From the NCBI GenBank assembly GCA_963814035.1, contig CAWFBH010000001.1, positions 337,130 to 401,129 on the forward strand: a DNA stretch of 64,000 nt, written 5' to 3'. A program made the translations under genes and the position numbers. The notes below the pieces were generated by a model, which did not search any database, was not told the DNA's origin, and saw only the letters and a list, made by a program, of their open reading frames with translations. Positions 46,356-64,000 of the stretch are shown here, piece by piece. The stretch is from an uncultured delta proteobacterium (lineage in GTDB: Bacteria; Desulfobacterota; Binatia; Binatales; Binataceae). Every line of letters starts with the position of its first letter. The stretch's first letter is position 1.

Positions 46356-46674
46356 ACCGAGCTACTCGCGCGATCGCAAAAAACGATACAGAGGAGGTCG
46401 TGCTACAGTCAGGCTCAAATTAATACAAGGTAGCTTGCGCGAGATCAAGGATAGTCGCATTTGCGTACTCAATGTCGGCTTATTTCATGCTGACGCAGCC
46501 TTATTTAGGCATCGCGACTTTACCTCCATGCCACATAGTATTACGATTGCGTCGATTTATCCTTCAGATTGTTATGTTAGCCAGCGCGTTGCGACACCTT
46601 CCAGATTCTCTCTTCAGGCTTCACACGCTGCGGCTCGCTATGACGGCTTTTGTGACCGTCAAGGACGTATTCGC

Positions 46675-47805
46675 TTGAGATTCAACATTGTGATGACACT
46701 TCTCATAGGCGGCGCGCTGGCTGTTTTCGTCGGATGCGGCAGCGACTCGCGCCCCGCGGAACAAACGAAGATTGCCGTGACCGTCCTCAAGGTGAGCGAG
46801 GGAGAGGAATCCAATTCCGGCGCGTATACCGCGAGCTTTCAGCCCCATCGCCAGACTGCCCTCTCATTCCAGGTCGGCGGTTATGTCGATTCCATCAAAC
46901 AAGTGCCCGGCGGCGATGGACGGATGCGTGACCTGCAGGGAGGCGATTCGGTCAAGGAACACGAACTGCTCGCGACCGTGAAGGCCGATACCTATCAAGC
47001 CCAGGTCAGTCAGTCCGAATCCGCGCTCGCGGGAGCGAAAGCGGTCTATGAAAAGGCCAAGCGGGATTTCGAGCGCGATGGCCAGTTGCTCGGCCAGCAC
47101 ATCATCGCGCGCGAAACCTACGACCTATCGTCCGAGCAATATCAATCCGCGCAATCGCAGGTTGCACAGGCGGAAGCGGCGCTGAAGCAAGCGCAAATCA
47201 ACCTGGGATATTGCAAGCTGACGGCGCCGATGGATGGGATAATTCTGGAACGCGGCATCGAGGTCGGTTCTCTCGCAGGACCGGCCAATGCCGCCTTTCA
47301 AATCGCCGACACTTCCACCATGAAGGCGGTGTTCGGCAGCTCCGACATCCAGGTGGCGCAATTCAAGCAAGGTCAAGCCCAAACCCTCACCACCGAAGCG
47401 ATTCCCGGGGCGCAATTGGTGGGAACCATCACACGCGTCGCGCCGAACGCGGATCCGACTACCAGGGTTTATGACGTCGAGATCACCGTCCCCAACAAGG
47501 ACGGCAAAATTCGCACCGGCATGATCGCGTCGCTGAAGGTCGCCGGCGCGGTCACCGCGGCCAGCACCGCCGCTACCCTTCCCCTCAATGCGATCGTCCG
47601 CCCGCCCGACGACCAGAAAGATTTCGCGGTTTATGTGGTCGAAGAAAAAGCCGGCAAGAGCCTCGCGCGACTGCGCAGGGTTCGCCTCGGCGACATCGTC
47701 GGCAACGAAATCGCCGTGTCCTCGGGAGTCCAGATGGGAGATGAGGTGATCGTGCGCGGCGCGACGATGGTATCGGATGGCACCGAAGTTCAGGTCATTC
47801 GCTGA
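46675..47805 (+). CDS. RND efflux periplasmic adaptor, probable lipoprotein
   Basis: An in-frame TTG at 46675 gives (M)RFNIVMTLLIGGALAVFVGCGS, which contains a lipobox; the ATG at 46693 is an alternative start. Adaptor pattern: YCKLTAPMDGIILERGIEVGS. The upstream 142 codons of the track ORF look non-coding. Confidence 0.85.
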   Translation: MRFNIVMTLLIGGALAVFVGCGSDSRPAEQTKIAVTVLKVSEGEESNSGAYTASFQPHRQTALSFQVGGYVDSIKQVPGGDGRMRDLQGGDSVKEHELLATVKADTYQAQVSQSESALAGAKAVYEKAKRDFERDGQLLGQHIIARETYDLSSEQYQSAQSQVAQAEAALKQAQINLGYCKLTAPMDGIILERGIEVGSLAGPANAAFQIADTSTMKAVFGSSDIQVAQFKQGQAQTLTTEAIPGAQLVGTITRVAPNADPTTRVYDVEITVPNKDGKIRTGMIASLKVAGAVTAASTAATLPLNAIVRPPDDQKDFAVYVVEEKAGKSLARLRRVRLGDIVGNEIAVSSGVQMGDEVIVRGATMVSDGTEVQVIR

Positions 47806-50800
47806 TGGCGCATCGTAGCGATTCCGAGATCATCGCCACCACCCACAATGTGGCGCGGTTCTTCGTCGAGAACCGTGCCATCGCCTGGATGCTGCTTATC
47901 GGGGTGATGGCCTGGGGCATCCTCGGCTATGCGCGCATGCCCAAGCGCAAGGATCCTGAGCTTCCGGTTCGCGAGGCGGTCGCCATATGTCCGTGGCCCG
48001 GCGTCCGCGCCGAGAAAATCGAGCAGATGGTGACGCGGAAGATCGAAGCGGTGATGGCGGAGAATTCTTCCGTCAATTCCGCCGGCGCCAGCAGCACCTA
48101 CGGCATCAAATCCACCACCCTCGACGGGGTCGCCATCGTCAACGTTCAGTTGGCTGAAAATGTCACTGACACCGGCAAGCAATTCAGTGACATCAATCTG
48201 CGCCTGAACAGCATCAACGATCTTCCAAACGGCGCGGGGCCCATTCAGTTCATCAGCGACTATGGCGACACCGCCGCGCTGATGCTCACCGTCGCGAGTC
48301 CCAAGCTAGGCGAGGTGGAGCTTGCGCTGCGGGCGCGCGCCATTCGTGCCGCGATCGAGAAGGCTCGCGAGTCGGCGCCGGCTGATGCAAAAACCTCGCG
48401 CGTGTCGCTGGTGACATTATTTCCCGAGGCGATCGGCACCGAAAACGTCGCTCGGGTGCGCGATGGGCTGACGCTCTATCTTCAGGCGCATAAGCTTGCG
48501 CGCGATATTCGTCCACTCGACGGCAACGGTTTCATCGGTTTGGATGCCGCGATCGCCCCCAATGTCGATCTCGCGGGGATCACGCGCACCTTCATCGCCG
48601 ATCATGTCGGCACTTCGGTCTTTCCCATCGTGCATCCCGATGCGTGGGCTCCGGTGCTGATTCGAAATCCCGCCGATACCGAGGCCGATCTGGATGCGGC
48701 GGCGGGCGACAAGTACACCTATCGCGAACTCGATCGTTATACCGACCTGATCCAGCGCGCACTCGAGACGCTACCGAATGTAGGGAAAGTGACGCGCTCG
48801 GGAGTGCTGCCGGAATGGATTCAGCTCGCCTACTCGCAGCGGCGGCTCGCGTCCTACGGCGTGCAGCCCGCGCGCCTCGCGCAGATCCTCGCCGAGCGCA
48901 ACATCACCCGCGCGGGAGGAACCATCGATGCGGCCGGGACCGATGTCACGGTGCATCCGAGCGGTGAATTTACCAATGCCGCGGAAATCGGCGACGTCAT
49001 CGTGCAGGCGACGCCGTCCGGCACTCCGCTCTATCTGCGCGATCTGGTGGAGGTCTTGCGCGGCTATCAGAATCCGCCGCAGTTGCTCAACTTCTACACC
49101 TCACGCAATGCGAAGGGCCGCTGGAACCGCAATCGCGCAATTACCCTGGCCATTTTTATGCGCTCCGGCCAGCAGATCGGCGCGTTCGGCAAGTCAGTCG
49201 ATCGCGCGCTGGGCGACCTGAAGAGCCGGCTTCCCGAGGACCTTATCATCGCGCGAACTTCCGACCAGCCGCGCCAGGTGCATGAAAACATCGACCTGCT
49301 GATGGGCGCGCTTTACGAAGCTATCGTGCTGGTCATCTTTGTCGCGCTGATCGGCTTTTGGGAATGGCGCTCCGCCTTGCTGATTGCGCTGGCGATTCCG
49401 ATCACGCTCGCGATGACGTTTGGGATGATGGATGTTCTCGGGATCGATTTGCAACAGGTTTCGATCGCAAGCCTCATCATCGCGTTGGGACTGCTGGTCG
49501 ATGATCCGGTGGTCGCGGGCGACGCGATTAAACATGAACTGGGGATGGGGAAGCCGGCGGCGATCGCGGCATGGCTTGGGCCCACCAAACTCAGCCGCGC
49601 CATCCTGTTCGCGACCATCACCAATATCGTCGCCTACCTGCCCTTCCTGATGCTGACCGGCGACACCGGGCGATTCCTGTATAGCCTGCCGATCGTGATG
49701 ACCTGCGCGCTGGTGGCCTCGCGAATCGTGTCGATGACCTTCATCCCGCAACTGGGCTACTACCTGATGCGACCCGGCAAACCGCTGCCGCCGATCGAGT
49801 ATCGCCGCACGCATGGAGTGACGGGGCTCTACTACAAGCTCGGGCACTACGCGCTCGAACATCGCAAGGCGTTCGTCGTAGTGTTCGTTCGTCTTCCTCG
49901 CGGGAGGTTTTTTCATCGGCAAGCATCTCCGGACCGCGTTCTTTCCCGAGGACGTTCAATATCTCGCGTATGTTGACGTATGGCTGCCGAACGGCGCCGC
50001 GCTCTCCGATACGAATGCGTGGCATCGCGGGCCGAAAGCGTGGTTCGAAAAGTCGCCCAGGACTATGGACATCGACATCCGGGTCGCGATGGCAAGCCTC
50101 GCGAGATCCTGAAATCCGTGACCAGCTTCGTCGGCGGCGGCGGTCCACGCTTCTGGATCTCCGCGCCTTCGGAATCGCAGCAAAGTAATTTTGCTCAGCT
50201 GGTTCTCGAAATCGAAGACAAGGACGACATGCCCAAGCTTGTCGGTCCGCTGCAAACCGCGCTGACCGAATCGGTACCCGGCGCTTACCTCGACGCGCGC
50301 CAGTTGCTGACCAATCCGGTGCGCTTCCCGATCGAGATTCATGTCTTCGGCCATGCGGATATCGACGCATCCCAGGAAGATTCGGACATCGACACGCTGC
50401 GGACCACCGCGGGCCGCATCGAGCAGATCCTGCGCTCGACTCCCGGGCGTTGCAAAACGTTCGCACTGACTGGATGGAGGAGAGCCCCGGCGTCGAGCTG
50501 ACGATCAATGCCGACCGCGCCAACATGGCGGGCATCAGCAACGCCGATATCGCGCGCTCCGCAGCCGCGGGTCTCAGCGGATGGCCGGTCGGAACGCTGC
50601 TCGATGGCGATACTCGCGTACCGATCGTTGCCCGCCTTCGGCAGGAAGAGCGCGCGAAGCTCGCCGATGTGGAGAATCTCTACGTCTATGCGCAGAACGG
50701 ACCCGGCCGCCCGTTAAATTCACTGGCGCCGGTGATCTTTCAGATGAGCCAGGAGCGCATCGTGCGGCGCGATCATTTCCGCACCATGACCATCAACGCG

Positions 50801-51457
50801 TTGACCAAGAGCGGCGTCCTGTCCTCGCAAGTGATGAGTCAGGCGATGCCGCAAATCAACGCGCTGCGCGACCAGCTCCCGCCGGGCTATCGCATCGTGA
50901 TCGGCGGCGAGCAGTACAAGCAGGAAGACGGCTTCGGGCAATTGACCCTGGTGCTGGAAATTTCGGTCGCGCTGATTTTCATCGCGCTGGTTTTGCAGTT
51001 CAACAACCTCATCAAACCGTGGCTGATTTTCGTGGCGGTGCCCTACGGCGTCGTGGGCGCGCTCGGAGCGCTCTGGCTAACCGGCACGCCGTTCGGCTTC
51101 ATGGCGTTCCTGGGAGTCGCGAGTTTGATCGGCGTAATCGTCAGCCATGTGATCGTCTTGTTCGAGTTTATCGAGGAGCGCCAGGACCTGGGCGAGGAAC
51201 TCATCCAGGGACTCCTCGATGCCGGCATCGAACGGCTGCGCCCGGTGATGGTGACCGTCGGCGCCACGGTGCTGGCGCTGTTGCCGCTGGCCTTTCACGG
51301 CGGGCCATTATGGCGTCCACTCTGCTTCGCGCAGATCGGCGGGCTTAGCCTCGCGACGATCATCGAGTTGGTCTTGGTGAAGTCGTTCTATGCGATCTTT
51401 GTCGCCGACCTGGGCATCCTGAAATGGGGCCCGTCGACGCCAGCGACGCACGAATAA
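47805..51457 (+). CDS. RND efflux permease with enlarged first periplasmic loop, at least two frame breaks (about 49880-49980 and 50460)
   Basis: The ORFs 47805..49976, 49980..50501 and 50450..51457 join to give about 1217 codons. It has RND TM4 ALGLLVDDPVV and C-terminal TM bundles. Its ATG overlaps the adaptor stop in TGATG. Confidence 0.85.
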
Positions 51458-51466
51458 AACCAGCGC

Positions 51467-54400
51467 TTACTTTCCGCTGCCCTCGGTCATCGCGGCTTCG
51501 GCGCGGCGGACCCATCCGGTCATTCCGATCTCGCGAAATTGATGCAGGGCAAGATCCAGCAGCGGACGCGCGCGCTCGAGGTCGCCGGCGTCGCCGCGAC
51601 GCAGGTACATCAGCGCTTCGTCGTAGTCGGTGATAGCTCGCAGTGGACGGGCACCCTGCTCTTCCAATACCAGCCGCGCCTTGGCGAACCAATCGACGGC
51701 CTCGTCGTAGCGATGTTGCAGCGCGCACAGGCGAGCGATCGACAAGCGGCTGTCGCGCATCGGCAACCGATAGTCGGGAGCGAGGACTTTGTTTCGGATA
51801 TTTCGCTCCACGATGCCGATCGAATCGGTACGGTTGAGGAACCACAACGTCGCCGCAGTATCACAGGCCATGGCGCTATACACGTAGGTCCATCCGGCGC
51901 CGGCTTCAATCGCGCGGAACAGCAGCTCGAGCCGTTGCAACGCCAGTTCGGTCTGATTGATGCGACTTAGGATGTAGGCCGCGGCGCCGTGGATGCCGGC
52001 CTCGGCATATCTGTTCTCATCGCGGCACTCCAGCATCATCGCCATGAACGCAGGATCGCTAAAAACATCCCCCCATCCTTCATCCAGCATGATGCGTAGA
52101 TCCTGTTTGGCCGAGAGCAGATTCAGCAGCCACGGAGACGACCCAACCCGGCGCGTCGAGAATCCGACCGCGCGATCGTAGGCCGCCTGCGCGAGGGTAA
52201 GATCTCCCAGCGCCGTGTGGCATCGTGCCACGCTCGCCCACGCATGCATCGCCCACGTGATGCGGCCCGCACGTTCCGCCTCAGCGGCCTCGTGTTGCCA
52301 GATCGGCAAAGTGCGCCGGAATTCACCGGCAAGGAACGCCAGCGCAGTCGGCGAGGCATCCGGGGATTCGATAATCTCTTGCCTCGATTCATACGGCCGT
52401 TCGAGGCCAACCGCGCGCAGTTGCTCGGGCGGTAGCTGTTTCAGAAAGGCGCGATGCTCGCGTTCGTTTGCGGTCTCGCATCGAATACCCGGATTGGCCG
52501 GGTCCTCGGCTGCGCGGCGCATCAAATCCACCTCGTTGAGGGCGGCCCAGTTGACGTCGCGCCGATCGCCCGCATAACGGAGGCCTTCCTTGGCCAGCGT
52601 CCAGGCGCCGCGCTGCAACCCTCCGTTGTACATCGCGCGCACCGCCGTGCGGTAATATTCGACCGCGGCGGCCGGGCTTTCCACGACCGCAACCAGGTCT
52701 GCGGCCTCACGACTCGCCTTAACCGCCTCCTCGAGGTTGAGGGTATATGCGAACGACAGTCCGAGGCGCGCCATCAGCCGAGGCCTTTGAGGATCCTCCG
52801 GCGCCAGCAGTTCCAGTGCGATGCGCAAAAACGCGATTACCTCGTCATGCGCATACGCGGCCTCGGCATTATTCGCCGCGGCAATCGCGTAATCCGCTCC
52901 GCGTTTGGCCCCGGAAGCCGCCGCGCCGCACCAGAACTGATAGGCGACCTCGGCCGCGTGATCCGAGGCGCGGTCACCCCAGGTTTGTTCCATCGCTTCC
53001 GCGATCCGCCGATGCAGCCGCACTCTGCGGGCAGGATTCAATCCGGAGTAAAGCGAATGACGAATGAGCGCATGCGTGAAGTCGAAAGTTTCCGCCGTGG
53101 TCCCGGGCCGCAAAAGCTGCGCATCGAGCGCTTCGTCAACCGCCGTCAGCGCAGCATCTTCATCCAACTCGGCAACCGCCGCCGCCACATCGAATGAGAA
53201 TGCACCCTTGAAGCATGCGCCCACCGTCAGCAGCCGATTCGCATCTTCGGAAAGCTTCAGCAGGCGGCGTCCGATGACACTGCGCACGCCTTCCGGAATG
53301 CCCAACTCGGTAACGCTGAACCTGGCTCCCCATCCCTTGCCGTCGCGCAGAATCTTGCCCTCTTCCATCAGATGCAGGAGGACTTCGCGGATGAACAGCG
53401 GATTTCCTTCGGTCTCCGTCGTGAGAGTCTGGACCAGCGCCTCGGGCGCGTCCTGGTCGGCGATGATGGAAAGCAGTTCCACCAACTCGGTGCTCTGCAA
53501 GCCCTTGAGAGCGAGAACTTCAAAGTTGGGAAGTCGCCGGACCGTCGCAAGGGCGCGCGCCAGCGGATGCATCCTGTCCACTTCCGCATCGCGGTAAGCG
53601 CCGATCAACAGCATCGAATTGGCGGCGACGCTATGGGCAACGTGGTTAAGCAGCCCGACGGTGCCGCGATCCGCCCAGTGCAAATCATCGAGCACCAGCA
53701 CCAGCGGCGCGCGCCGCGAAAGCTCGATCAGAAACTGCGACACCGCATCGAGGAGACGGAATCGTTCCTCCTCCTTGTCGAGCGCGATCGGCTCGGTGAT
53801 CGCTCCGATTTTTTCGCGCAACACCGGTGCGATGCGGGCCAGCGTGGCGGCATTATTCCCGCATACGGCGATGAGCTCGGAGGACTGCGCCTGGCGCGCA
53901 TACTGACTGATCGCTTCCGCGAAGGGACCGTAAGGCGGTTGCCATTCGCCGTCGTAGCAGGAGCCCTTCAGCACAATCGCTCGGCGCTCGCGCGCGAACT
54001 CCGAGAACTCAGCAATCATGCGGCTCTTTCCGATGCCCGGCTCGCCCTGCAGCATCACGATCGAGCCCTGGCCATTGCAAGCCTCTTCGAGCCTCGCGGA
54101 GAGCCGTTTGAGTTGCTCGGCACGGCCCACGAAAGGGGTGCGATTGATCAGGGCCGCGGCATCGTTGCGCTGATAAAGGACCTCGGCGACGGCGGTTGGG
54201 GTCGCGATGCCTTTGAGCGCGAGCGTCCCCTTGTCGCGAAAAGAAAAGGTTTGCCGCGCCGACAACATATCGACGACCAGCTTGCTGACCAGGATCTGCC
54301 CGGCCACCGCGCTATCGCATAACCGGCGCGCCAACACGATCGGGACGCCAAAGTAACCGTCCTCACGGCGCAACACCTCGCCGACATGGATGCCGATGCG

Positions 54401-54673
54401 GATCTCAAATTTGGCGCCGTCGATGGGGCGGCGCGCGGTCTGCTCAATTCGAATCGCACAGCGCACCGCGTCGGCGGCCGAAGAAAACGCGGCCAGCACC
54501 CCATCCCCGAGCCATTGCAGCTCCTCGCCGCCGCAGCCGCCGATCGCATCGGACATCAGTTTGTGATGGGCCCGAAAGAGCCGATGGCCAGTCTCGTCGC
54601 CGGCGCGCTCCAACAGCTGGGTGGAGTTGACTAGATCGGTAAAGAGCAGGGTCTGAGTGCCGGATGCCGCCAT
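51467..54673 (-). CDS. Class III nucleotide cyclase - AAA_16/STAND NTPase - TPR-like repeat protein (copy 2, intact)
   Basis: Same architecture as copy 1. The ATG at 54673 gives MAASGTQTLLFTDLVNST.... It has ELQWLGDGVLAAF, Walker A LQGEPGIGKSR and Walker B LVLVLDDLHWAD. Confidence 0.85.
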   Translation of the reverse strand: MAASGTQTLLFTDLVNSTQLLERAGDETGHRLFRAHHKLMSDAIGGCGGEELQWLGDGVLAAFSSAADAVRCAIRIEQTARRPIDGAKFEIRIGIHVGEVLRREDGYFGVPIVLARRLCDSAVAGQILVSKLVVDMLSARQTFSFRDKGTLALKGIATPTAVAEVLYQRNDAAALINRTPFVGRAEQLKRLSARLEEACNGQGSIVMLQGEPGIGKSRMIAEFSEFARERRAIVLKGSCYDGEWQPPYGPFAEAISQYARQAQSSELIAVCGNNAATLARIAPVLREKIGAITEPIALDKEEERFRLLDAVSQFLIELSRRAPLVLVLDDLHWADRGTVGLLNHVAHSVAANSMLLIGAYRDAEVDRMHPLARALATVRRLPNFEVLALKGLQSTELVELLSIIADQDAPEALVQTLTTETEGNPLFIREVLLHLMEEGKILRDGKGWGARFSVTELGIPEGVRSVIGRRLLKLSEDANRLLTVGACFKGAFSFDVAAAVAELDEDAALTAVDEALDAQLLRPGTTAETFDFTHALIRHSLYSGLNPARRVRLHRRIAEAMEQTWGDRASDHAAEVAYQFWCGAAASGAKRGADYAIAAANNAEAAYAHDEVIAFLRIALELLAPEDPQRPRLMARLGLSFAYTLNLEEAVKASREAADLVAVVESPAAAVEYYRTAVRAMYNGGLQRGAWTLAKEGLRYAGDRRDVNWAALNEVDLMRRAAEDPANPGIRCETANEREHRAFLKQLPPEQLRAVGLERPYESRQEIIESPDASPTALAFLAGEFRRTLPIWQHEAAEAERAGRITWAMHAWASVARCHTALGDLTLAQAAYDRAVGFSTRRVGSSPWLLNLLSAKQDLRIMLDEGWGDVFSDPAFMAMMLECRDENRYAEAGIHGAAAYILSRINQTELALQRLELLFRAIEAGAGWTYVYSAMACDTAATLWFLNRTDSIGIVERNIRNKVLAPDYRLPMRDSRLSIARLCALQHRYDEAVDWFAKARLVLEEQGARPLRAITDYDEALMYLRRGDAGDLERARPLLDLALHQFREIGMTGWVRRAEAAMTEGSGK

Positions 54674-55006
54674 GCTAAACCTACATGGCTCCCGCGACTC
54701 ACGAGGATGCGACGGATCGGAACATGTGGGTTTCCGAACCGAAACCATCGCGGCTGTTCCGAAATGCTTGAGGGTGCATTGGGTTGGCGGGCCACCGCAA
54801 CTTCTCGAACTAAAAGAGCAATCGCGTCAATTGTTGGCTTTAATGCGCTCTGTTTGGCTTATTCTTCCGAATCGTACGATCGGCCTATTCTTCTGTCAAA
54901 CTGTAGTCAAATCTGGACGTTGAGTAGCGATACCCGCGTATTTCGTACCCGCCGTAAGTCCTTCGACGTCGAGGATCCATCGGTGATACCGCGCGCGCGA
55001 AATTTA

Positions 55007-55028
55007 GTGGCACAGGCTTCAGCCTGTG
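55007..55028. repeat. REP-like palindrome GTGGCACAGGCTTCAGCCTGTG (left inverted-repeat copy)
   Basis: It forms the hairpin CACAGGC-TTCA-GCCTGTG. It is the exact reverse complement of 57053..57074. Confidence 0.85.
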
Positions 55029-55059
55029 TCTTCTTCTTCGCTGTGTTGTCGATTGACAT

Positions 55060-55126
55060 CAATCGTCCACAGACCTAAAGCCCGTGCCACCGAAGATCGC
55101 GACCGTAGAAGGCTGTGCGATGGCAC
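55060..55126 (+). repeat. 67-bp direct repeat, copy A (contains a degenerate CACAG..GTGCCAC element)
   Basis: CAATCGTCCACAGACCTAAAGCCCGTGCCACCGAAGATCGCGACCGTAGAAGGCTGTGCGATGGCAC. By eye it is about 85-90% identical to copy B, which lies 299 bp downstream. Confidence 0.8.
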
Positions 55127-55135
55127 CATCGCTGC

Positions 55136-55155
55136 GGGTCGTTCGCGAACGACCC
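55136..55155. repeat. Perfect 20-bp palindrome GGGTCGTTCGCGAACGACCC
   Basis: It is self-complementary. Its right part, plus CTACGAGGA (55142..55164), recurs exactly at 56956..56978. Confidence 0.85.
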
Positions 55156-55228
55156 CTACGAGGATCCGGCGGATCGCAACCTGGTCTGAGAGGTGCTTCC
55201 GATAAGTTTGCGATCTGGATTGCTGGTA

Positions 55229-55248
55229 GGGGCGGTTCGCGAACCGCC
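55229..55248. repeat. Perfect 20-bp palindrome GGGCGGTTCGCGAACCGCCC (REP-like, second family)
   Basis: It is self-complementary, is preceded by GTAG, and shares the TTCGCGAA core with 55136..55155. Confidence 0.85.
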
Positions 55249-55358
55249 CGCAACGATGTTCCAGTTGCGATGATTCTCGCGATTGCCTCAGATCCGTCTT
55301 TCGTAACTGGCAGAGCTTCGGCCCGTATCTGCTCTTCGATGGAATGTGGGAGTGACAG

Positions 55359-55426
55359 CAATCGTCCAGAGACTAAAGCCCTGTGCCACCGAAGATCGCG
55401 ACCGTAGAGGGTCTGTCAGATGGCAC
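55359..55426 (+). repeat. Direct repeat, copy B
   Basis: CAATCGTCCAGAGACTAAAGCCCTGTGCCACCGAAGATCGCGACCGTAGAGGGTCTGTCAGATGGCAC. Confidence 0.8.
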
Positions 55427-55518
55427 TGTAAATCACGGCGACCAGCAATACTCACCGAGTTTTCTTGCCGCTTTAATCATCGAAAGAATCCGGAAATTTT
55501 CGGAGAGTTGGTTTCCCG

Positions 55519-55752
55519 TTGCTAGCCTTCCCGCGATTCCGCCCGCAAAGCGGATGCGTGGAGAAATCAGCCTCGAATTCGACCGAATCCATAGAAGAAA
55601 GGCTCGCAAGAGAACGCGCAGAGGCGCGCGAAGAACTGCGAAACGCGGACATGGGCGCGTTCGATCGCGCTATTGATGCGCTGCTTAAGACAGGAAATAG
55701 CCAAAAACCCAGTAGAAAGAAAAAGCGGCTGGAGCAGTCGGAACAATTTTAG
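55519..55752 (+). CDS. Possible small basic coiled-coil protein (weak call)
   Basis: The ORF ends ...ESIEERLARERAEAREELRNADMGAFDRAIDALLKTGNSQKPSRKKKRLEQSEQF. Only TTG (55519) or an internal GTG is available as a start. Its stop overlaps the stop of gene C convergently. Confidence 0.25.
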   Translation: MLAFPRFRPQSGCVEKSASNSTESIEERLARERAEAREELRNADMGAFDRAIDALLKTGNSQKPSRKKKRLEQSEQF

Positions 55753-56177
55753 ATCACGTCTTGCATCAACTCTATCGGATAAGATGCGAGAGAAATCCAG
55801 TCTCGTACTCCGACCACACGGTAGGCAAGCTTTACATTAATTTTTCGTGAGCTTACAGGAATGCCCGGAACTTGAGCAATGATCCGATGACTGGGCGCGG
55901 TAAATTTCCACTTCATTTCGCTCACGGCTAGCGTCGTACCTGCGCCGGTCTCTATGGACAATTGTTGCTCGAATTCGACGTTGTTATCTTGCGGTTCTTC
56001 TTCTCGCCAAAGGGTCAGCACTGACCATTGTATCGGAAGCATGGCATTAGGCTGAATTTGAGCACCTGGAGGTAGTTTGTAGTGTATCTCCTGCAAAACT
56101 ACTATTAGCGAAATAGATTTGCTCTGTTCGTCGATAAGAACCTTCTCGCAAGGCGCGAACAACAATAGTTTTGGCAT
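55749..56177 (-). CDS. Hypothetical protein (cassette gene C, 142 aa)
   Basis: It starts 5 nt after the stop of gene B. It looks beta-rich, has no TM segment, and has low GC. I could not assign a family with confidence. Confidence 0.6.
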   Translation of the reverse strand: MPKLLLFAPCEKVLIDEQSKSISLIVVLQEIHYKLPPGAQIQPNAMLPIQWSVLTLWREEEPQDNNVEFEQQLSIETGAGTTLAVSEMKWKFTAPSHRIIAQVPGIPVSSRKINVKLAYRVVGVRDWISLASYPIELMQDVI

Positions 56178-56182
56178 CCGTT

Positions 56183-56497
56183 TCAGGCCACGCGCACGAA
56201 CTCGATCTCTGTACGCTGAGTGTTGTCTTCCTTGGAAGTAATAGCTGAGAGCTGTATTTTCTCAAGCTGGATCAATCGCTCAAGTTGCTGGAACGGTTGC
56301 CAATCTTTCGGCTTCTCGGTGGCGACGCTAAACCAAGGCGCACCGCGTAACATCCAATTGCGTCGAAGTTCCACCCAACTGTATCCAACATCGTGATACC
56401 CAAACTCAGTCCCGCAGCAAGGACAAATGTTGTGGTTTGCCGCTGGCTCGTCCATTTTGTCGTATCCGCAAACGGGGCAATAGTATGTTTGGTTCAT
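56183..56497 (-). CDS. Zinc-ribbon protein (cassette gene B, about 104 aa)
   Basis: MNQTYYCPVCGYDKMDEPAANHNICPCCGTEFGYHD has two CxxC pairs. The ATG at 56497 overlaps the stop of gene A in ATGA. The track ORF starts 12 nt further upstream. Confidence 0.6.
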   Translation of the reverse strand: MNQTYYCPVCGYDKMDEPAANHNICPCCGTEFGYHDVGYSWVELRRNWMLRGAPWFSVATEKPKDWQPFQQLERLIQLEKIQLSAITSKEDNTQRTEIEFVRVA

Positions 56498-56820
56498 CTT
56501 CTGGCACACTCACTTTGAAAGTACGCGAGATTGCTCGCTAGTCGATGCCAAGCGATTGTTGGTCGGAAAAATGTTCGTATCCTTCCGTCTGCCCTCATCA
56601 CTGCAAAGTTCTCGGTAGCTGGCTCGTATCTGATGGTATCACCATCGCGTGGCCGCACGCATTCGTACACTTTGCTTGGATCGATGGGCGCGTTCAAAAA
56701 TGCAATGGCCTCGCGTTCATACGCCTGTTCGTCGGCTATCTCAGGAAACTCCTGACTGTGCAGCAACCAATGATCTGCGCGTTTTGAAACGTGCGCGAAC
56801 GCGGTTGCTACAATTGCCAC
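56494..56820 (-). CDS. Hypothetical protein (cassette gene A, 108 aa)
   Basis: GTG start, low GC. The sequence is AHVSKRADHWLLHSQEFPEIADEQAYEREAIAFL...GDTIRYEPATENFAVMRADGRIRTFFRP. No family was recognised with confidence. Confidence 0.55.
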   Translation of the reverse strand: MAIVATAFAHVSKRADHWLLHSQEFPEIADEQAYEREAIAFLNAPIDPSKVYECVRPRDGDTIRYEPATENFAVMRADGRIRTFFRPTIAWHRLASNLAYFQSECARR

Positions 56821-56955
56821 AGTTCCAATCGGTTAAATCCCAGCAACAAATTAGTACGCATTGCTTGCTAGTGTAAAAGAAGCAAATTCCGGCCCGTCAC
56901 GTCCACCAAGAATTTAGCGAAGCTTCGACGAAGAGTCGACATTCACCTAATCCCC

Positions 56956-56978
56956 TTCGCGAACGACCCCTACGAGGA
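56956..56978 (+). repeat. 23-nt direct-repeat copy TTCGCGAACGACCCCTACGAGGA
   Basis: It is identical to 55142..55164, on the other side of the three cassette genes. Confidence 0.85.
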
Positions 56979-57052
56979 ATAGGAAGGCTCAGATAGGGGC
57001 AAGGCTTCCTCTTGGTTATTTTTTTCGATTTGGTGGATTGATCTGCGTCGGC

Positions 57053-57074
57053 CACAGGCTGAAGCCTGTGCCAC
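57053..57074. repeat. REP-like palindrome CACAGGCTGAAGCCTGTGCCAC (right inverted-repeat copy)
   Basis: It is the exact reverse complement of 55007..55028. It lies 37 nt downstream of the stop of cyclase copy 3 and could also act as that gene's terminator hairpin. Confidence 0.85.
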
Positions 57075-57110
57075 TGAAGAGAATGGTCATATCAGAAGGA
57101 GAGATTTCAG

Positions 57111-60100
57111 CTATTCTACGCCGCCGCCGCTCATCGCGGCCAGCGCACGCCGGATCCATCCGGTCATGCCGATCTCGCGAAATTGACTCAGCGCAACTTC
57201 CAGCAGCGGTCGCGCTCGTGCCAGGTCGCCGGTGCCGCCGCGACGGAGGTACATCAGCGCTTCGTCGTAGTCGGTGATCGCACGCAGCGGACGCGCGCCC
57301 TGCTCATCCAGTACCGTCGCGTGCCTTGGCGAACCAATCGACCGCCTCATCATAGCGACGTTGCAGCGCGCACAAACGACCCATCGACAAACGGCTATCG
57401 CGCATCGGATAGCGGAAGTCGGGAACGAGGACTTTTTCGCGCAGGTTGCGCTCCACCAGCCCGATCGAATCGGTACGGTCGAGGAACCACAGCGTCGCGG
57501 CCGTGTCACAGGCCATGCCGCCATAGACGAAAGTCCAACCGGCGCCGGCTTCAATCGCGGGAAACAGCAATTCGAGCCGCTGCAGCGCCATTTCAGTCTG
57601 GTTGATGCGGCTAAGGACGTATGCAGCCGCGGCGTGGATGGCCGCGGAGGCCCATTTGTTGTCCTCGCGGGTCTCCTGCATGATCGCCATCAGCACCGGA
57701 TCGGTAAAAACCTCGTCCCAGCCATCATCCAACATGATGCGCAAATCCTGCCTGGCCGAGAGCAGATTCAGCAGCCATGGCGACGATCCGACTCTGCGCG
57801 CCGAGAAGGCGACGGCGCGATCGTAGGCCGCCTGCGCCTGAGCGAGCTCTCCCAAGGCCATGTGGCATCGCGCGACGCTAGTCCACGCGTGCATTGCCCA
57901 CATGATGCGTCCGGCGCGTTCCGCCTCGACCGCCTCCTGGTGCCAGATGGGCAGGCTGCGCCGGAGCTCCCCGGCCAGGAACAGCAGCGCGCTCGGTGAG
58001 GGGTCGGGAGATTCGAGGACCTCTTTTCTCGATTCCACCGGCTGGTCCAGACCAACCGCGCGCAGTTGCTCAGGCGGGAATTGCTTCAAAATCGCCCGAT
58101 GTTCGCGTTCGTTGGGCGTCTCGACACGGATACCCGGATTGGCCGGGTCCTCGGCTGACTGGCGCATCAAATCCATCTCGTTGATCGCGGCCCAGTTGAC
58201 GTCGCGCCGATCGCCCGCATGGCGGAGCCCGTCTTTCGCCAGGGTCCATGCGGCGCGCAGCAGGCCCCCGTTGTACAGCGCACGAACGACTATCCGCAGG
58301 TATTCGGTGGCCGCGACTGGGCCTTCCGCGGCGGCAATCATGTCAGCGGCCTCGCTGCTGACTTTGACCGCCTCATCGGCACTGAGCGTATATGCGAGAG
58401 AGAGCCCGAGGCGCGCCATCAGCCGCGATCGTTGCGGATCGTCCGGCGCCAAAAGCTCGAGTGCGATGCGCAGAAACGCGACTACCTCATCATGCGCATA
58501 CACCGCTTCGGCATTGTTCGCGGCGGAGATCGCATAGTCGGCGCCGCGCTTCGCGCCGGAAGCGGCCGCGCCGCACCAGAATTGATAGGCGACCTCGGCC
58601 GCATGATCCGACACCCGCTCGCCCCACGTACGTTCCATCGCCTCGGCAATCCGCCGATGCCATCGCACCCTGCGGGCAGGATTCAAGCCCGAGTAAAGCG
58701 AATGACGAATGAGGGCGTGGGTGAAATCGAAAGTTTCTGCGGTGGTTCCCGGACGCAGAAGCTGCGCATCGAGGGCTTCGTCAACCGCGGTCAGCGCCGC
58801 ACCTTCATCCAGCTCGGCAACCGCGGCGGCGACATCGAATGAGAACGCACCCTTAAAGCATGCGGCGACGGTCAGCAGCCGGTTGGCGTCTTCAGAGAGC
58901 TTCATCAGGCGGCGCTCGATGACGCTGCGCACGCCTTCGGGAATGCCCAGTTCGGTGACGCTGAACCGCGAGCCCCATCCCTCGCCGTCGCGCAGAATCT
59001 TGCCCTCTTCCATCAGATGAAGGAGGACTTCGCGAATAAAGAGCGGATTGCCTTCGGTTTCCGCGGTCAGGGTCTGGACCAGCGGCTCGGGCGCCTCCTG
59101 GTCGGCGATGATGGACAGCAACTCGACCAACTCGGTGCTCTTCAAACCTTTGAGGGCGAGGACTTCGAAGTTCGGCAGCCGCCGAACCGTGGCAAGGGCG
59201 CGCGCCAGCGGATGCATCCGGTCCACCTCGGCATCGCGGTAAGCGCCGATAAGCAGCATCGAATTGGCGGCGACATTATTGGCCACATGGTTGAGCAGCC
59301 CGACGGTGCCGCGATCGGCCCAGTGCAAATCATCGAGCACCAGCACCAGGGGCGAGCGGCGCGCGACTTCGATGAGAAACTGCGAAACCGCATCGAGGAG
59401 GCGGAATCTTTCTTCTTCTTTGTCGAGCGGAGCGGGCTCGATGATGGTGCCGATTTTCTCGCGCACCGCCGGTGCGATGCGGGCAAGCGTGGCGGCATTG
59501 TTCCCGCATACCGCGATAAGCTCGGAGGACTGGGCCTGGCGCGCATACTGGCTGATGGCCTCGGCGAAGGGGCCGTAGGGCGGTTGCCATTCGCCGTCGT
59601 AGCAGGCGCCGCGCAGCACGATCGCTCGGCGCTCGTGCGCGAACTCGGAAAACTCAGCAATCATGCGGCTTTTTCCGATGCCGGGCTCGCCCTGGAGCAT
59701 CACGATCGAGCCCTGGCCGTTGCAAGCCTCTTCGAGCTTCGCGGAAAGGCGGCTGAGTTGCTCGGCACGGCCGACGAAGGGGGTGCGATTGATCAGGGCG
59801 GCGGCATCATTGCGCTCATAGACCACCTCGGCAACGGGGGTGGGCGTCGGGATGCCTTTGAGCATGCGGGCATCGAGTTCGCGAAAAGCGAATGCTTGCC
59901 GCGCCGACAACATATCAACTATGAGCCTGCTACATAGGATCTGCCCGGCGACCGCGCTATCGCATAGCCGGCGCGCCAACACGATCGGGACGCCGAAGTA
60001 ACCGTCCTCACGTCGGAGCACTTCGCCGACGTGAATGCCGATGCGGATCTCAAATTTGGCGCCGTCGATCGGGCGACGCGCGGTCTGCTGGATTCGAATC

Positions 60101-60318
60101 GCGCAACGCACAGCGTCGGCGGCGGAGGCATAGGCGGCCAGCACGCCATCGCCTAACCATTGCAACTCCTCGCCGCCATTGGTGCTGATGGCGTTAGACA
60201 TCAACTTGTGATGGGCCGCGAAGAGGCGATGACCGGCTTCGTCACCGGCGCGCCCCAAGAGCTGCGTAGAATTCACCAAATCTGTGAAAAGCAGCGTTAA
60301 GGTTCCTGATTCCGCCAT
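57111..60318 (-). CDS. Class III nucleotide cyclase - AAA_16/STAND NTPase - TPR-like repeat protein (copy 3), one frame break at about 57318
   Basis: ORF 57304..60318 (1004 aa) ends prematurely at ...WFAKARDGTG. Removing one G near 57318 gives ...AKARTVLDEQGARPLRAITDYDEALMYLRRG..., which continues in ORF 57111..57554 and parallels the copy 2 C-terminus. Confidence 0.85.
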
Positions 60319-60691
60319 CTCATACCTCGGTGGCGGGAACGGCGCGGAAATCGATAAATTGAGGGCTCATGCTGACATGCACGGGGACGTTGAATCCCCA
60401 GATGCAGACAAACCGGACGGCGGTATTAGCCCGTCTCATTCGTAGCTCACTTCAGACCCTCAAACGTGCTCGAAACTTAGCTCCGCGATGCACGTTTAAG
60501 CTTAATTGAGCTACATGCTACGACGCCGCGACATTCTATGTCAAATTGTAGGCGAACCCCAACAAACTGTTTATCTTCGTACGCCGGCTGTGTGGCTTGA
60601 AGTTGAGGAAATGTCCACTCTGTGTCGGCCTATAACCCGACTCGATGTCGGCATGGGGCGAGCGGAAAGCAGCGCGACGGATATATGAGGG

Positions 60692-60729
60692 CCGGCCGGT
60701 CCGGGAGCATAGCGCGCCGAACCGGCCGG
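60692..60729 (-). terminator. Hairpin after the amidohydrolase gene (possible terminator, no clear U-tract)
   Basis: CCGGCCGGT and ACCGGCCGG form a 9-bp stem with a 20-nt loop, directly downstream of the stop at 60738. Confidence 0.35.
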
Positions 60730-60737
60730 TTATCTAT

Positions 60738-62402
60738 TCAGACAATCTGGCCCGCGCGTGACGCGGTGTATTTTCCCGCATCGACCACCACGTCGCCATT
60801 GACGATTACCTTATCGATGCCGCGCGCATGGCGGATGTAGCGGTTGCCGCCGCCGGGAAAATCGTTGACAAACTCCTCGGCGCCGCGCTCGATCGTTTTG
60901 GGGTCGAAGAGCGTCAAATCGGCGGCAGCTCCGACCGCGATGCGTCCGCGATTCTTGATCCCCCACGCATCGGCGGGCTCCGCCGTGATGCGATGAATCG
61001 CGCGCTCGAGGCTGAGTTTCCCGAACTGGCGCACGAACCGCGCAAGGAGATCGCTGGTGTCGCCCGCGCCGCAGAACTGCGCGACATGCGCGCCCGCATC
61101 GGAAGCGCCGATATGAATCGATGGATGGTCCAGTATCTGCGCGACGATATCCTTGTCGGCGTGAATGAAGTCGTTGATCTGGAACTCGGTCTGGAGGTCG
61201 TCCGCCACCGCGATTTCGAGCATCGCCTCGGAAATCGGCTTGCCCATCGACTTCGCGATCTCGGTTAGGCGGCGGCCTTTGAACTCCTGATTGGCCTGGC
61301 TGTAAACCTCGCCGACGACCGATCCCCGCAGCAGCACGGCGATGCGGCGCTCGGCGTCCTCGACCAGCTTCGGACGCGCATCGCGATCGGCAAAAGCCGC
61401 AATTCGCTGCGCCAGCGGAAGCTGCATGATGCGATTCCACGATGGCAGTCCATAGAGCAGGAACGAAGTCTCCGAAAGCCGGATGTTGATGTTGAAACTC
61501 CGAGTCATCGATTGCCCAAACACCTTGGCGCCTCGCGCGCGCTGCTCATCGAGCTTCTCGAGGTTGCGCTTGTAGAGCTCGGGCGCTGCGGGACTGTAGA
61601 TGATCGGCGCAATGGTGCAGAAGACGCCGCTGGCGAGGCTTAGCTCGGCCAACTCCTCGATGTTCTTGAGTTGCTGCTCCGGATCGATGAAGTACGGAAC
61701 CGTCTGCAGAGTGCCGCGGCCACTCTTAGCCATCGCTTTGCAAAGCGCGATCTTCTCGCGCATGTCAGCGAGCCGACTCGGAACCGGACGGTTGTTCTCA
61801 TCGATGTCGACATAAGAAGTGGATAGCCCAATCGCTCCCGCCGCCATCGCTTCTTCGAGGAGGTCGCTCATCTGCGCGATCTCGGCATCGGTGGCGACGC
61901 GCTCCTGGCTCTCCGCGCCCATCACGTAGTAGCGCAGCGCGGAATGACCCACCAGCGCGCCGACGTTGATGCCGAGCCCGGGCCGAATGAAATCGAGATA
62001 CTGCCCGAAGCTCTCCCATTTGAAAGGCACTCCCGCATCGAAGGTCGGCTCCTTGATGTCTTCGATCTTCCCGAACATCTTGATCAGCTTGCGACTCGCG
62101 CCTTCATGCACCGGCGCGAGGCTCAAGGAGCAATTGCCGACGACCACCGTGGTTACGCCATGCTCCAGACTCGGAGTGGCAAGGCGATCCCAGCATAGCT
62201 GCGGATCGAAGTGGGTATGGATGTCGATAAATCCGGGGCTGAGCACATGGCCGCCCGCATTGATTTCTTTAGCCGCGGTTCCGTCGAATTTTCCGACCGC
62301 GAGAACCTTGCCATCGGCGATTGCGACGTCACCCTGAAATGAAGGCGCGCCGGTTCCGTCGACGATCTTTGCATTGCGGATCGCGAGATGTGCCTGACTC
62401 AT
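60738..62402 (-). CDS. Amidohydrolase-family protein, N-acyl-D-amino-acid deacylase (D-aminoacylase)-like
   Basis: The N-terminus is IRNAKIVDGTGAPSFQGDVAIADGKV...SPGFIDIHTHFD (metal-binding HxH). The length and C-terminal beta-barrel pattern are typical of the D-aminoacylase subgroup. Confidence 0.75.
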   Translation of the reverse strand: MSQAHLAIRNAKIVDGTGAPSFQGDVAIADGKVLAVGKFDGTAAKEINAGGHVLSPGFIDIHTHFDPQLCWDRLATPSLEHGVTTVVVGNCSLSLAPVHEGASRKLIKMFGKIEDIKEPTFDAGVPFKWESFGQYLDFIRPGLGINVGALVGHSALRYYVMGAESQERVATDAEIAQMSDLLEEAMAAGAIGLSTSYVDIDENNRPVPSRLADMREKIALCKAMAKSGRGTLQTVPYFIDPEQQLKNIEELAELSLASGVFCTIAPIIYSPAAPELYKRNLEKLDEQRARGAKVFGQSMTRSFNINIRLSETSFLLYGLPSWNRIMQLPLAQRIAAFADRDARPKLVEDAERRIAVLLRGSVVGEVYSQANQEFKGRRLTEIAKSMGKPISEAMLEIAVADDLQTEFQINDFIHADKDIVAQILDHPSIHIGASDAGAHVAQFCGAGDTSDLLARFVRQFGKLSLERAIHRITAEPADAWGIKNRGRIAVGAAADLTLFDPKTIERGAEEFVNDFPGGGNRYIRHARGIDKVIVNGDVVVDAGKYTASRAGQIV

Positions 62403-62423
62403 TCTAAATTCCTCTCTCCTCGG

Positions 62424-63416
62424 TCAATTCTTTTTGAAGCGCCGTTTCAGCCACCCGACGATCGTTTCATTCACCGCATCCGGAAATTCCTGCTGCACCC
62501 AGTGTCCCGCGCGCTCGATGTTGTGCATCTCCAGGTCGGAGCACAGCGCCGGCATCCCGGCCGCCATGCGCGGGGGCAGCGCGCCGTCCCATTCGGCGGT
62601 GACCATCAAACATGGCAGCGTGAGCTTCTCGACGCCGACCTGCGGATGCTCCCGCGCGTTGCGATCGATGTTGCGGTACCAGTTGATACCGCCGCGAAAG
62701 CCGGTCTTCTCATAGGCGTGCACGTAAACGTCAAGCTCTTCGGGCGTAACGATGAGCGCGGTCTCGGGCTTGAGGTCTTCGATGTGGCGGAACGGATTCA
62801 TATCCAGCTCGCCGCTCGCCATCATGCGCTTCACAGCTTCGGCGGGTTCCAGCGGCGCGCGCATCAGGCGATCAAAAATCAGCCGCGCCTTCGAATCCAT
62901 CACTGCCTCGGCGCGCCCGGGTTCCTGAAACCACAGGATGTACATCCGCTCGTCCTTCCCGTTGACCAGCGTGCGCATGAATGAGGTAAGCGGGAACGGC
63001 ATGTAGGGGGTGCAAACGCCGATGACGCCGGCGGTGCGCTGCGGATGCAGAACCGGCATCGCCCACGCGACGAAGCCGCCCCAATCGTGACCGACGAAGA
63101 CCGCGCGCTCGATTTGCATCGCATCGAGCAGACCGACCAGGTCGCCGGTCAATTCGGTCAGGCCGTAATCGCTGACTGCGGGTGGCGCACTCGAATCGGC
63201 ATAGCCACGCTGGTCGGGCGCGATCGCGCGGAAGCCCGCCGCCGCGATCGCCGGCAGTTGATGGCGCCATGAGAACGCGAGCTCGGGAAATCCATGGCAG
63301 AAGACCACCGCCGGTCCTTCGCCGGTTTCATGGACGGTAAGATTTACCGAAGGTTGATTCGCGCGCGGCGCGAGCTTTACCGAGCGGCCCTGCGGCCAGG
63401 TCGAAGTCGACATCAT
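62424..63416 (-). CDS. Alpha/beta hydrolase, soluble epoxide hydrolase-like
   Basis: It has the HGFP oxyanion motif (VVFCHGFPELAFSWRHQ), nucleophile GHDWGG, and C-terminal AGHWVQQE. Confidence 0.85.
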   Translation of the reverse strand: MMSTSTWPQGRSVKLAPRANQPSVNLTVHETGEGPAVVFCHGFPELAFSWRHQLPAIAAAGFRAIAPDQRGYADSSAPPAVSDYGLTELTGDLVGLLDAMQIERAVFVGHDWGGFVAWAMPVLHPQRTAGVIGVCTPYMPFPLTSFMRTLVNGKDERMYILWFQEPGRAEAVMDSKARLIFDRLMRAPLEPAEAVKRMMASGELDMNPFRHIEDLKPETALIVTPEELDVYVHAYEKTGFRGGINWYRNIDRNAREHPQVGVEKLTLPCLMVTAEWDGALPPRMAAGMPALCSDLEMHNIERAGHWVQQEFPDAVNETIVGWLKRRFKKN

Positions 63417-63469
63417 GTGCCTCGTATAGCGGTTAATGTTTCAGCTTCGTCGATGATTCGCAAAGCTCA

Positions 63470-64000
63470 TCAGCTGGCGATCTCTGCCGGTGGATACGGC
63501 GGCACCTGGTCGGCTTCGATCGGAGGCCGCGGTGGGCGCTGCATGATCTCATTCACCGCCGCAAGAAATTCCGTATCCGTCGCCAGCGACTCGGCGGGAC
63601 GGTTCAGGTTGATGACGTTGAAGAGCGCCTCGGCAATGACCGGCACGCCCGCGCCTTCGCGCAGAATCCGCTCCCACGCCTCGCCGCCCATCGCGCCTTC
63701 GGAGCCGGTGCTTTGGCCGAGCGCCTGCCGATCGCGCGCGACCGACAGGTCCCAGGGCATTTTCAGGAACTCCGCCTGACGCTGATAAAACGTCGCGGGA
63801 AAATTTGCCTCGGTCGGATCCAGTTCGGCCACCAGCTTGCCGAGGATCTGCGAGCATACCGACGCGCTGGTCATGCCCTGGGCATAAACCGGATTGAATG
63901 CGCACACCGCGTCGGCCATCGCCACGAATCCCGCCGGGCCCCTGCTCTTCTCGTAATGCTTCCAGATGTTCTGCATCCCCTTGCGATGGAAAATCGCGGA
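63470..64000 (-). CDS. FAD-dependent monooxygenase/oxidoreductase, C-terminal part (gene continues past the right edge)
   Basis: The frame stays open upstream of the listed ATG to position 64000. ADAVCAFNPVYAQGMTSA resembles the GDAxxxxxPxxGQG FAD-binding motif found late in flavin monooxygenases. Confidence 0.55.
   Translation of the reverse strand, partial: SAIFHRKGMQNIWKHYEKSRGPAGFVAMADAVCAFNPVYAQGMTSASVCSQILGKLVAELDPTEANFPATFYQRQAEFLKMPWDLSVARDRQALGQSTGSEGAMGGEAWERILREGAGVPVIAEALFNVINLNRPAESLATDTEFLAAVNEIMQRPPRPPIEADQVPPYPPAEIAS

Follow-up and report, generated by a model that had tools for sequence, protein, structure and literature searches.

The spacer between two tandem adenylate/guanylate cyclase genes in the genome of an uncultured member of the Binataceae (G000; 4.95 Mb in 29 contigs, 76% complete) is very probably a cluster of the host's own short repeats, resembling repetitive extragenic palindromic (REP) elements, into which a passenger-bearing transposon of the IS1595 family inserted and was later truncated. 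The window analyzed was a stretch of 64,000 nt (C1:337130–401129), and the spacer occupies positions 54674–57110 of it. An earlier, sequence-only reading had treated positions 55007–57074 as a single low-GC cassette, bounded by a perfect 22-nt inverted repeat and a 23-nt direct repeat and inserted between the cyclase genes through those repeats. Both repeats proved exact and lie where they had been placed, and the genes between them are indeed foreign; the repeats, as shown below, are not the ends of the element. The locus was compared with genomes G002 (the closest relative in the comparisons), G003, G004, G008, and G018, with the elements in G002:C7 (L011) and G004:C1 (L012), with the G003:C4 locus (L015), and with a metagenomic contig of the Joint Genome Institute (JGI; L020).

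The transposon remnant and its intact relatives

The foreign part of the spacer extends from 55457 to 56955 and is a 5′-truncated IS1595-family transposon. Its features, together with the adjoining target sequence, are as follows.

55457–55525 (+), 3′ remnant of an IS1595-family transposase, found as a tblastn match: the last 22 codons (EFSCRFNHRKNPEIFGELVSRC, then the stop codon)
55558–55752 (+), small conserved open reading frame (ORF) following the transposase; likely start, GTG at 55558; equivalent in L020 at 5233–5424
55749–56177 (−), passenger gene 3, a 142-aa all-beta sandwich protein, distant kin of DUF6941 (25 homologues; model confidence, as predicted local distance difference test [pLDDT], 89)
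56183–56509 (−), passenger gene 2, a CPCC zinc-ribbon protein and candidate immunity protein (PF14206, E 3.2e-5)
56494–56820 (−), passenger gene 1, a putative stand-alone toxin of 108 aa with a colicin-D/CdiA-CT-like tRNase fold, from sequence and model
56933–56955 (−), right terminal inverted repeat (IRR), reverse complement GGGGATTAGGTGAATGTCGACTC, matching its counterpart in the intact elements L011 and L012
56956–56978 (+), target octamer TTCGCGAA (56956–56963) followed by half of a family-B repeat (CGACCCCTACGAGGA), together constituting the right copy of the 23-nt direct repeat

The identity of the element was given by its left part. Over positions 55451–55731 (281 nt), the window shares 85% nucleotide identity with the elements in G002:C7 and G004:C1, and the aligned segment comprises the last ~25 codons of a 300-aa ORF plus the small ORF downstream of it. 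In the relatives the 300-aa ORF is intact and contains the domains DDE_Tnp_IS1595 (PF12762, E 1.5e-38) and Zn_ribbon_IS1595 (PF12760). The three copies of the small ORF differ mainly at third codon positions, and the differences are synonymous. The cassette had been described as containing neither transposase nor integrase. The second half of that description stands, as no ORF in 54700–57110 has an integrase domain; the first does not, given the 22-codon transposase remnant and the IRR. An integron or other site-specific gene cassette was considered and rejected, there being no integrase domain and the flanking repeats belonging to dispersed host families.

The right end of the element is at 56955, where the IRR directly adjoins TTCGCGAA, the central octamer of the family-B palindrome. 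By alignment, the sequence from 55457 to 56955 was shown to be collinear with intact elements having the order left terminal repeat (IRL), transposase, small ORF, cargo on the opposite strand, IRR. The left end differs: the IRL motif GGGGATTAGG was not found in the window, where only the IRR is present, transposase homology starts only at ~55457, and only the right TTCGCGAA copy of an 8-bp target duplication is retained.

Intact relatives provided the ends that the window copy lacks. L011 is ~2.6 kb long, with the IRL GGGGATTAGGTTGCTGTTGACTC and a right end that is the complement of GGGGATTAGGTGAATGTTGACTC. It is flanked on both sides by the 8-bp sequence TTCGCGAA, and its empty site, in G000:C23, is an uninterrupted family-B repeat. 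L012 (~3.1 kb) is flanked by GTCGCGAC, with an empty site at G000:C1:131625–131633. A right-end scan of the Binataceae genomes yielded further elements; five complete ones, L011 and L012 included, have matching 8-bp duplications (GTCGCGAC, TTCGCGAA, ATTCTAGT, ACTAGCCG, and CTTGGGGA); both ends are present in L011, L012, L063, L066, and L074. L020 has 37-nt inverted repeats, 95% complementary, which enclose a toxin-like gene, a CPCC gene, a 140-aa gene, a small ORF, and a 300-aa IS1595 transposase. Two further cargo-bearing IS1595-family elements are located in G000 itself, at C1:319128–324360 (13 kb upstream of the window) and at C2:109920–112802, with 8-bp duplications TTTGTTTT and AGTTGACT, respectively; an IS21 (istA/istB) is nested in the former, which also has a 302-aa gene that weakly matches HATPase_c_2. 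Duplications of 8 bp are typical for insertions of the IS1595 family, and terminal repeats beginning with GGGG fit that family as well (PMC12561309). Members of the family that carry passenger genes have been termed "transporter IS" (Siguier, Gagnevin & Chandler 2009, as cited in PMC12561309).

The G002:C7 element was also examined as a possible syntenic counterpart of the cyclase locus; this was rejected, as it is an independent insertion of the same insertion sequence (IS) lineage. Strict targeting of the apex of the family-B repeat (TCGCGA) was likewise rejected, because other insertions are at unrelated 8-bp targets. The lineage has at most a preference for the repeat apex, which was the target at two of the ~10 insertion sites seen.

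The host repeats surrounding the transposon

The inverted repeat GTGGCACAGGCTTCAGCCTGTG at 55007–55028 is the exact reverse complement of 57053–57074, and the direct repeat TTCGCGAACGACCCCTACGAGGA is present at both 55142–55164 and 56956–56978. The repeat features of the spacer, apart from the half repeat listed above, are the following.

55005–55032 (+), family-A hairpin, left arm of the inverted repeat (nhmmer E 2.5e-11)
55051–55125 (+), direct repeat D1, copy 1, made up of a degenerate family-A copy in reverse orientation (55075–55091) and a left extension
55127–55164 (+), complete family-B palindrome containing the left copy of the direct repeat, found by genome repeat search
55223–55258 (−), family-B repeat, inverted and with a compensated stem (variant "C"), found as repeat pair I1
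55350–55425 (+), direct repeat D1, copy 2, including a degenerate family-A copy (55371–55390)
57053–57076 (−), family-A hairpin, right arm of the inverted repeat (nhmmer E 1.6e-9), 34 nt downstream of the cyclase-2 stop codon

A genome-wide search showed that neither repeat is specific to this locus: G000 contains ~25–30 copies of family A and ~24 of family B. The family-A hairpin, GTGGCACAGGCTTCAGCCTGTGT, accounts for seven exact 22-mers in G000, and an nhmmer model built from 12 copies located elsewhere in the genome detected 19 copies with a score of at least 25 and 30 with a score of at least 12. Several loci have inverted pairs of family A, 48–113 nt apart. Four family-A copies lie within the 2.4-kb spacer itself, two of them degenerate. 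The copies of family B/C (CATCGCTGCGGGTCGTTCGCGAACGACCCCTACGAGGA) occur in both orientations and include compensatory stem variants, and the family was found in all nine of nine same-genus genomes. In the window, the copies at 55127–55164 and 55223–55258 form an inverted doublet like those of REP doublet-forming hairpins (REPINs); the fold of 55120–55265 has a predicted energy of −43.2 kcal/mol (z −5.96). Families A and B/C thus have the characteristics of REP/REPIN-like elements, being short imperfect palindromes with many dispersed copies and frequent inverted doublets. A search for the REP-associated tyrosine transposase (RAYT; Y1 transposase, PF01797) gave no match in the 76% complete G000 assembly, and the matches in relatives were only near the cut-off (22–29 bits). 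Another abundant dispersed repeat, GGAAGGGG(Y)TAGGGGTTAGGTC, was found on many contigs in both orientations (e.g., G000:C2:193205, C2:195319, and C20:244736).

These results bear directly on the boundaries that had been assigned to the cassette. The inverted and direct repeats are copies of host families A and B, with no role as element ends. The right copy of the direct repeat is the half of a target repeat left beside the IRR, and the left copy lies in another family-B element, which is complete. A degenerate partner of the left arm of the inverted repeat is located 43 nt from it; we therefore judged it less likely that the two exact family-A copies are the arms of one split doublet. The family-A model did not detect the proposed forward partners of the other two spacer copies, so that a picture of three family-A doublets is supported in part. 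The left extension in copy 1 of D1 also adjoins family-B elements elsewhere, and extended family-B matches reach 55088–55097.

D1 may record the point of insertion. Its 75-nt copy 2 ends exactly at the point where the family-B repeat begins in copy 1. The transposon would thus have inserted into a second family-B repeat, the one following copy 2 of D1, and copy 2 would have bordered that target on its left. About 0.9 kb would later have been lost by deletion: the target repeat's left half, the IRL, and ~275 transposase codons. Loss of the left end and of most of the transposase would have rendered the element immobile.

The passenger genes

The three passenger genes had been described as markedly AT-rich and as apparently acquired horizontally, and both statements were supported. 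GC content over 54650–57050 is 0.47–0.53, versus 0.61–0.66 in the cyclase genes and 0.604 genome-wide, and GC content at third codon positions is 0.48–0.60 in the three genes versus ~0.75 in neighboring genes. The trio and its transposon relatives have a GC content of ~0.47–0.54 inside hosts of ~0.58–0.62. The 142-aa gene is present in 9 of 121 family genomes and in 7 of 30 genera. The trio is kept together in G018, which belongs to another genus, with 44–55% amino acid identity, and in G018, L017, and L020 it has no cyclase neighbor. Foreign composition, absence from G002, patchy distribution, and the occurrence of the same trio within an intact IS1595 transposon together support acquisition of these genes as horizontally transferred cargo.

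The 108-aa product of gene 1 matched the Protein Data Bank (PDB) chain 8ey4_A by sequence (phmmer E 7e-8). Its structure model (pLDDT 95) was matched by Foldseek to the same chain with a template modeling (TM) score of 0.87 (E 1.8e-6; 31% identity), colicin D tRNase domains coming next, and the source names of its homologues include filamentous hemagglutinin and pyocin large subunit-like proteins. The gene is a stand-alone ORF, present once in the genome, with an open frame of only 112 aa; it was not found joined to any large delivery protein by way of PT-VENN or a comparable junction.

Gene 2 lies directly downstream of the toxin gene, overlapping it by 16 nt. Its match to PF14206 is weak (24.1 bits, with a cut-off of 24.5), as are those to 8ey4_I (E 0.0075) and 8ey3_A (E 0.0045), annotated "Cys_rich_CPCC domain-containing protein". 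Because 8ey4_I belongs to the toxin-immunity entry that also gave the best structural match for the toxin, gene 2 was taken to encode the immunity partner. We infer from homology and modeling that the cargo includes a toxin/immunity pair in which the CPCC protein would neutralize the 108-aa tRNase-like protein. Riding on a transposon, such a pair could serve as an addiction or competition module. A literature search with the code 8EY4 found no paper. For the 142-aa product of gene 3, the structure model gave only generic matches to Ig-like or PDE6-delta-like folds (TM ~0.45), and DUF6941 was assigned on distant homologues. A profile search against PDB sequences gave no match and a search of the reference genome contigs found no relative; its relatives came from a genome search and the protein database.

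The passenger slot of this IS lineage has a further property. In four intact elements (L011, 10923–10938; L012, 11211–11226; L063, 2483–3395; and L074, 6325–7162) the passenger gene nearest the right end starts inside the right terminal repeat, with the sequence GGGGATTAGGTGA-ATG-TTG-ACT-CC, and all four proteins begin with MLTP. They are otherwise diverse, with a DUF3800 protein in two cases and, in the other two, an unknown protein of ~310 aa, this second pair having 24% identity. The corresponding ATG of the window (56942–56940) begins an ORF of just 24 codons. A tentative interpretation is that this Binataceae IS1595 lineage is a small cargo-exchange platform whose IRR, in several members, encodes the start of interchangeable, unrelated passengers, the slot being taken here by a tRNase/CPCC addiction module or an orphan-pair reservoir.

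The cyclase locus, alternative explanations, and known systems

The cyclase genes flanking the spacer are as follows.

51467–54673 (−), cyclase paralog 1, with adenylate/guanylate cyclase, AAA_16, and TPR domains (Pfam); true ATG at 54673
57111–60318 (−), cyclase paralog 2, orthologous by position and sequence to the one cyclase gene of G002 (91% nucleotide identity to G002_X)

The two paralogs are 85% identical in amino acid sequence. The start of cyclase 1 was assigned to 54673, the exact point at which homology to the single G002 gene begins. Relative to paralog 1, G002, and G003, cyclase 2 has a 1-nt insertion near 57315 (57308–57325) that shifts its frame 68 codons from its end; either the gene is a true pseudogene or the insertion arose in assembly. 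A promoter-like site (TTGACA-17 nt-TACGAT) was noted at 54871–54899 (−); it precedes the start codon of cyclase 1 by 198 nt and lies in sequence without a counterpart in G002.

G002 has one cyclase gene. Positions 46650–54673 and 57121–64000 of the window align to its locus with 89–92% identity, and the aligned G002 locus has no counterpart of 54674–57120; the spacer and one cyclase copy are missing. Homology between the cyclase copies ends at the cyclase-1 start codon and at about the cyclase-2 stop codon. The nucleotide identity of cyclase 1 is only 83%, whether to cyclase 2 or to the G002 orthologue, compared with 89–92% for the flanks, so that the duplication would be older than the species split or copy 1 would have been imported. 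The last ~40 nt of the G002 gene are closer to copy 1 than to copy 2, as expected if a copy was lost by recombination near the 3′ end. In G003, tandem cyclase paralogs are separated by a 3-kb spacer (L015, 7731–10746) containing a gene for a HigB-like toxin together with a fragment of an IS110-family transposase; G008 has two cyclase copies 475 nt apart. From the varying copy number and spacers in these three genomes, the locus appears to be a variable paralog array whose gaps accumulate mobile DNA. That it is an insertion hotspot between duplicated genes, as had also been suggested, is plausible but unproven.

Several observations weigh against a truncated transposon with foreign cargo. With the left end missing, a target duplication in the window cannot be demonstrated, and the deletion is deduced. 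No clean empty site is available for exactly this insertion; in the nearest relative, G002, the entire spacer is missing along with one of the cyclase copies. Protein identity between the cargo and its closest relative is just 77%, and L020, although an intact element with this cargo, differs in its terminal repeats; an exchange of cargo may thus have brought the trio into this IS lineage. The roles of toxin and immunity protein, finally, are read from homology and fold. The alternatives fared considerably worse. Recombination at the inverted and direct repeats, mediated by a REP/RAYT system or site-specific, would explain why two exact repeats flank low-GC genes, and the two family-A copies do face each other like the inverted doublets elsewhere in the genome. 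Against this, both repeats belong to dispersed families, the right copy of the direct repeat is directly accounted for as the half-site of a transposon target, and the left family-A copy is already paired with its degenerate neighbor. Neither a Y1/RAYT gene in G000 (the matches in relatives being borderline) nor an integrase was found to carry out such an exchange, and elsewhere the same cargo lies within IS1595 terminal repeats rather than between family-A and family-B repeats. We consider a cassette of this kind very unlikely.

The position of the trio, on the same strand as both cyclases and between them, could also indicate that it is native to the locus as a functional partner of the cyclase-STAND proteins, and its toxin-like content would suit a signaling or defense effector. 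This is extremely improbable, because the trio is found without a cyclase neighbor in three other places and no repeated co-occurrence with such cyclase genes was seen in unrelated genomes, G002 keeps the cyclase without the trio, and the genes, of foreign composition, are flanked by an IRR and a transposase remnant. A chimeric join in this metagenome-assembled genome is likewise very unlikely as the source of the spacer or the tandem arrangement. An incomplete assembly in 29 contigs, a repeat-rich region, and the frameshift in cyclase 2 would all be in keeping with such an artifact. The paralogs, though, differ by 17% in nucleotide sequence and are unlikely to collapse or be mis-joined easily, both flanks are collinear with G002, and G003 independently has tandem paralogs with a spacer between them. 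We therefore retain the truncated IS1595-family transposon in a host repeat cluster as the explanation of the spacer.

The locus is a case in which perfect repeats around low-GC genes mimic cassette ends and the real boundary of the mobile element lies elsewhere. It also puts on record IS1595-family transposons that bear cargo in the Binataceae, an uncultured family that has been little studied; one such cargo is a stand-alone colicin-D/CdiA-CT-type toxin with a CPCC protein. The findings are of use for annotation and for tracing how toxin/immunity modules travel; they open no new class of mechanism, and overall the spacer is a fairly routine mobile-element scar.

IS1595 passenger elements are already known, as are REP-like repeats and pairs of the CdiA-CT/CdiI type; this locus is a further, decayed example in an uncultured lineage. 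The intact relatives resemble the IS1595 transporter IS in having a DDE_Tnp_IS1595 plus zinc-ribbon transposase, GGGG termini, 8-bp duplications, and additional non-transposition genes within their ends. The window copy differs in having lost its left end and nearly all of its transposase and in its cargo, a toxin/immunity trio; the lineage also has the conserved small ORF after the transposase. Like REP/REPIN elements, the host repeats are short palindromes that are dispersed, have compensated stems, and often form inverted doublets; a RAYT gene was not found in the incomplete G000 assembly. The elements IS1397 and ISKpn1 insert into REP-type repeats, the bacterial interspersed mosaic elements (BIMEs) of enterobacteria. 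The present elements share with them a transposon at a palindrome apex, in the window and in G002:C7, and differ in that targeting is not strict, the same IS lineage being found at unrelated 8-bp targets as well. The predicted toxin fold superposes on those of the E. coli O32:H37 CdiA-CT/CdiI complex (PDB 8EY4) and of the colicin D tRNase, the partner of ImmD, and the downstream gene matches 8ey4_I, described as a CPCC protein. Compared with the 8EY4 complex, the toxin here is free-standing, 108 aa long, and without a PT-VENN or delivery region, the candidate immunity protein is longer (108 aa versus 65–70), a third gene follows, and sequence identity is low. The arrangement of a small toxin gene followed by its putative neutralizer, on a mobile carrier and with a patchy distribution, recalls both orphan cdiA-CT/cdiI modules and type II toxin-antitoxin pairs. 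It differs in not lying downstream of a full-length cdiA or rhs gene, and no antitoxin-type DNA-binding domain was detected here.

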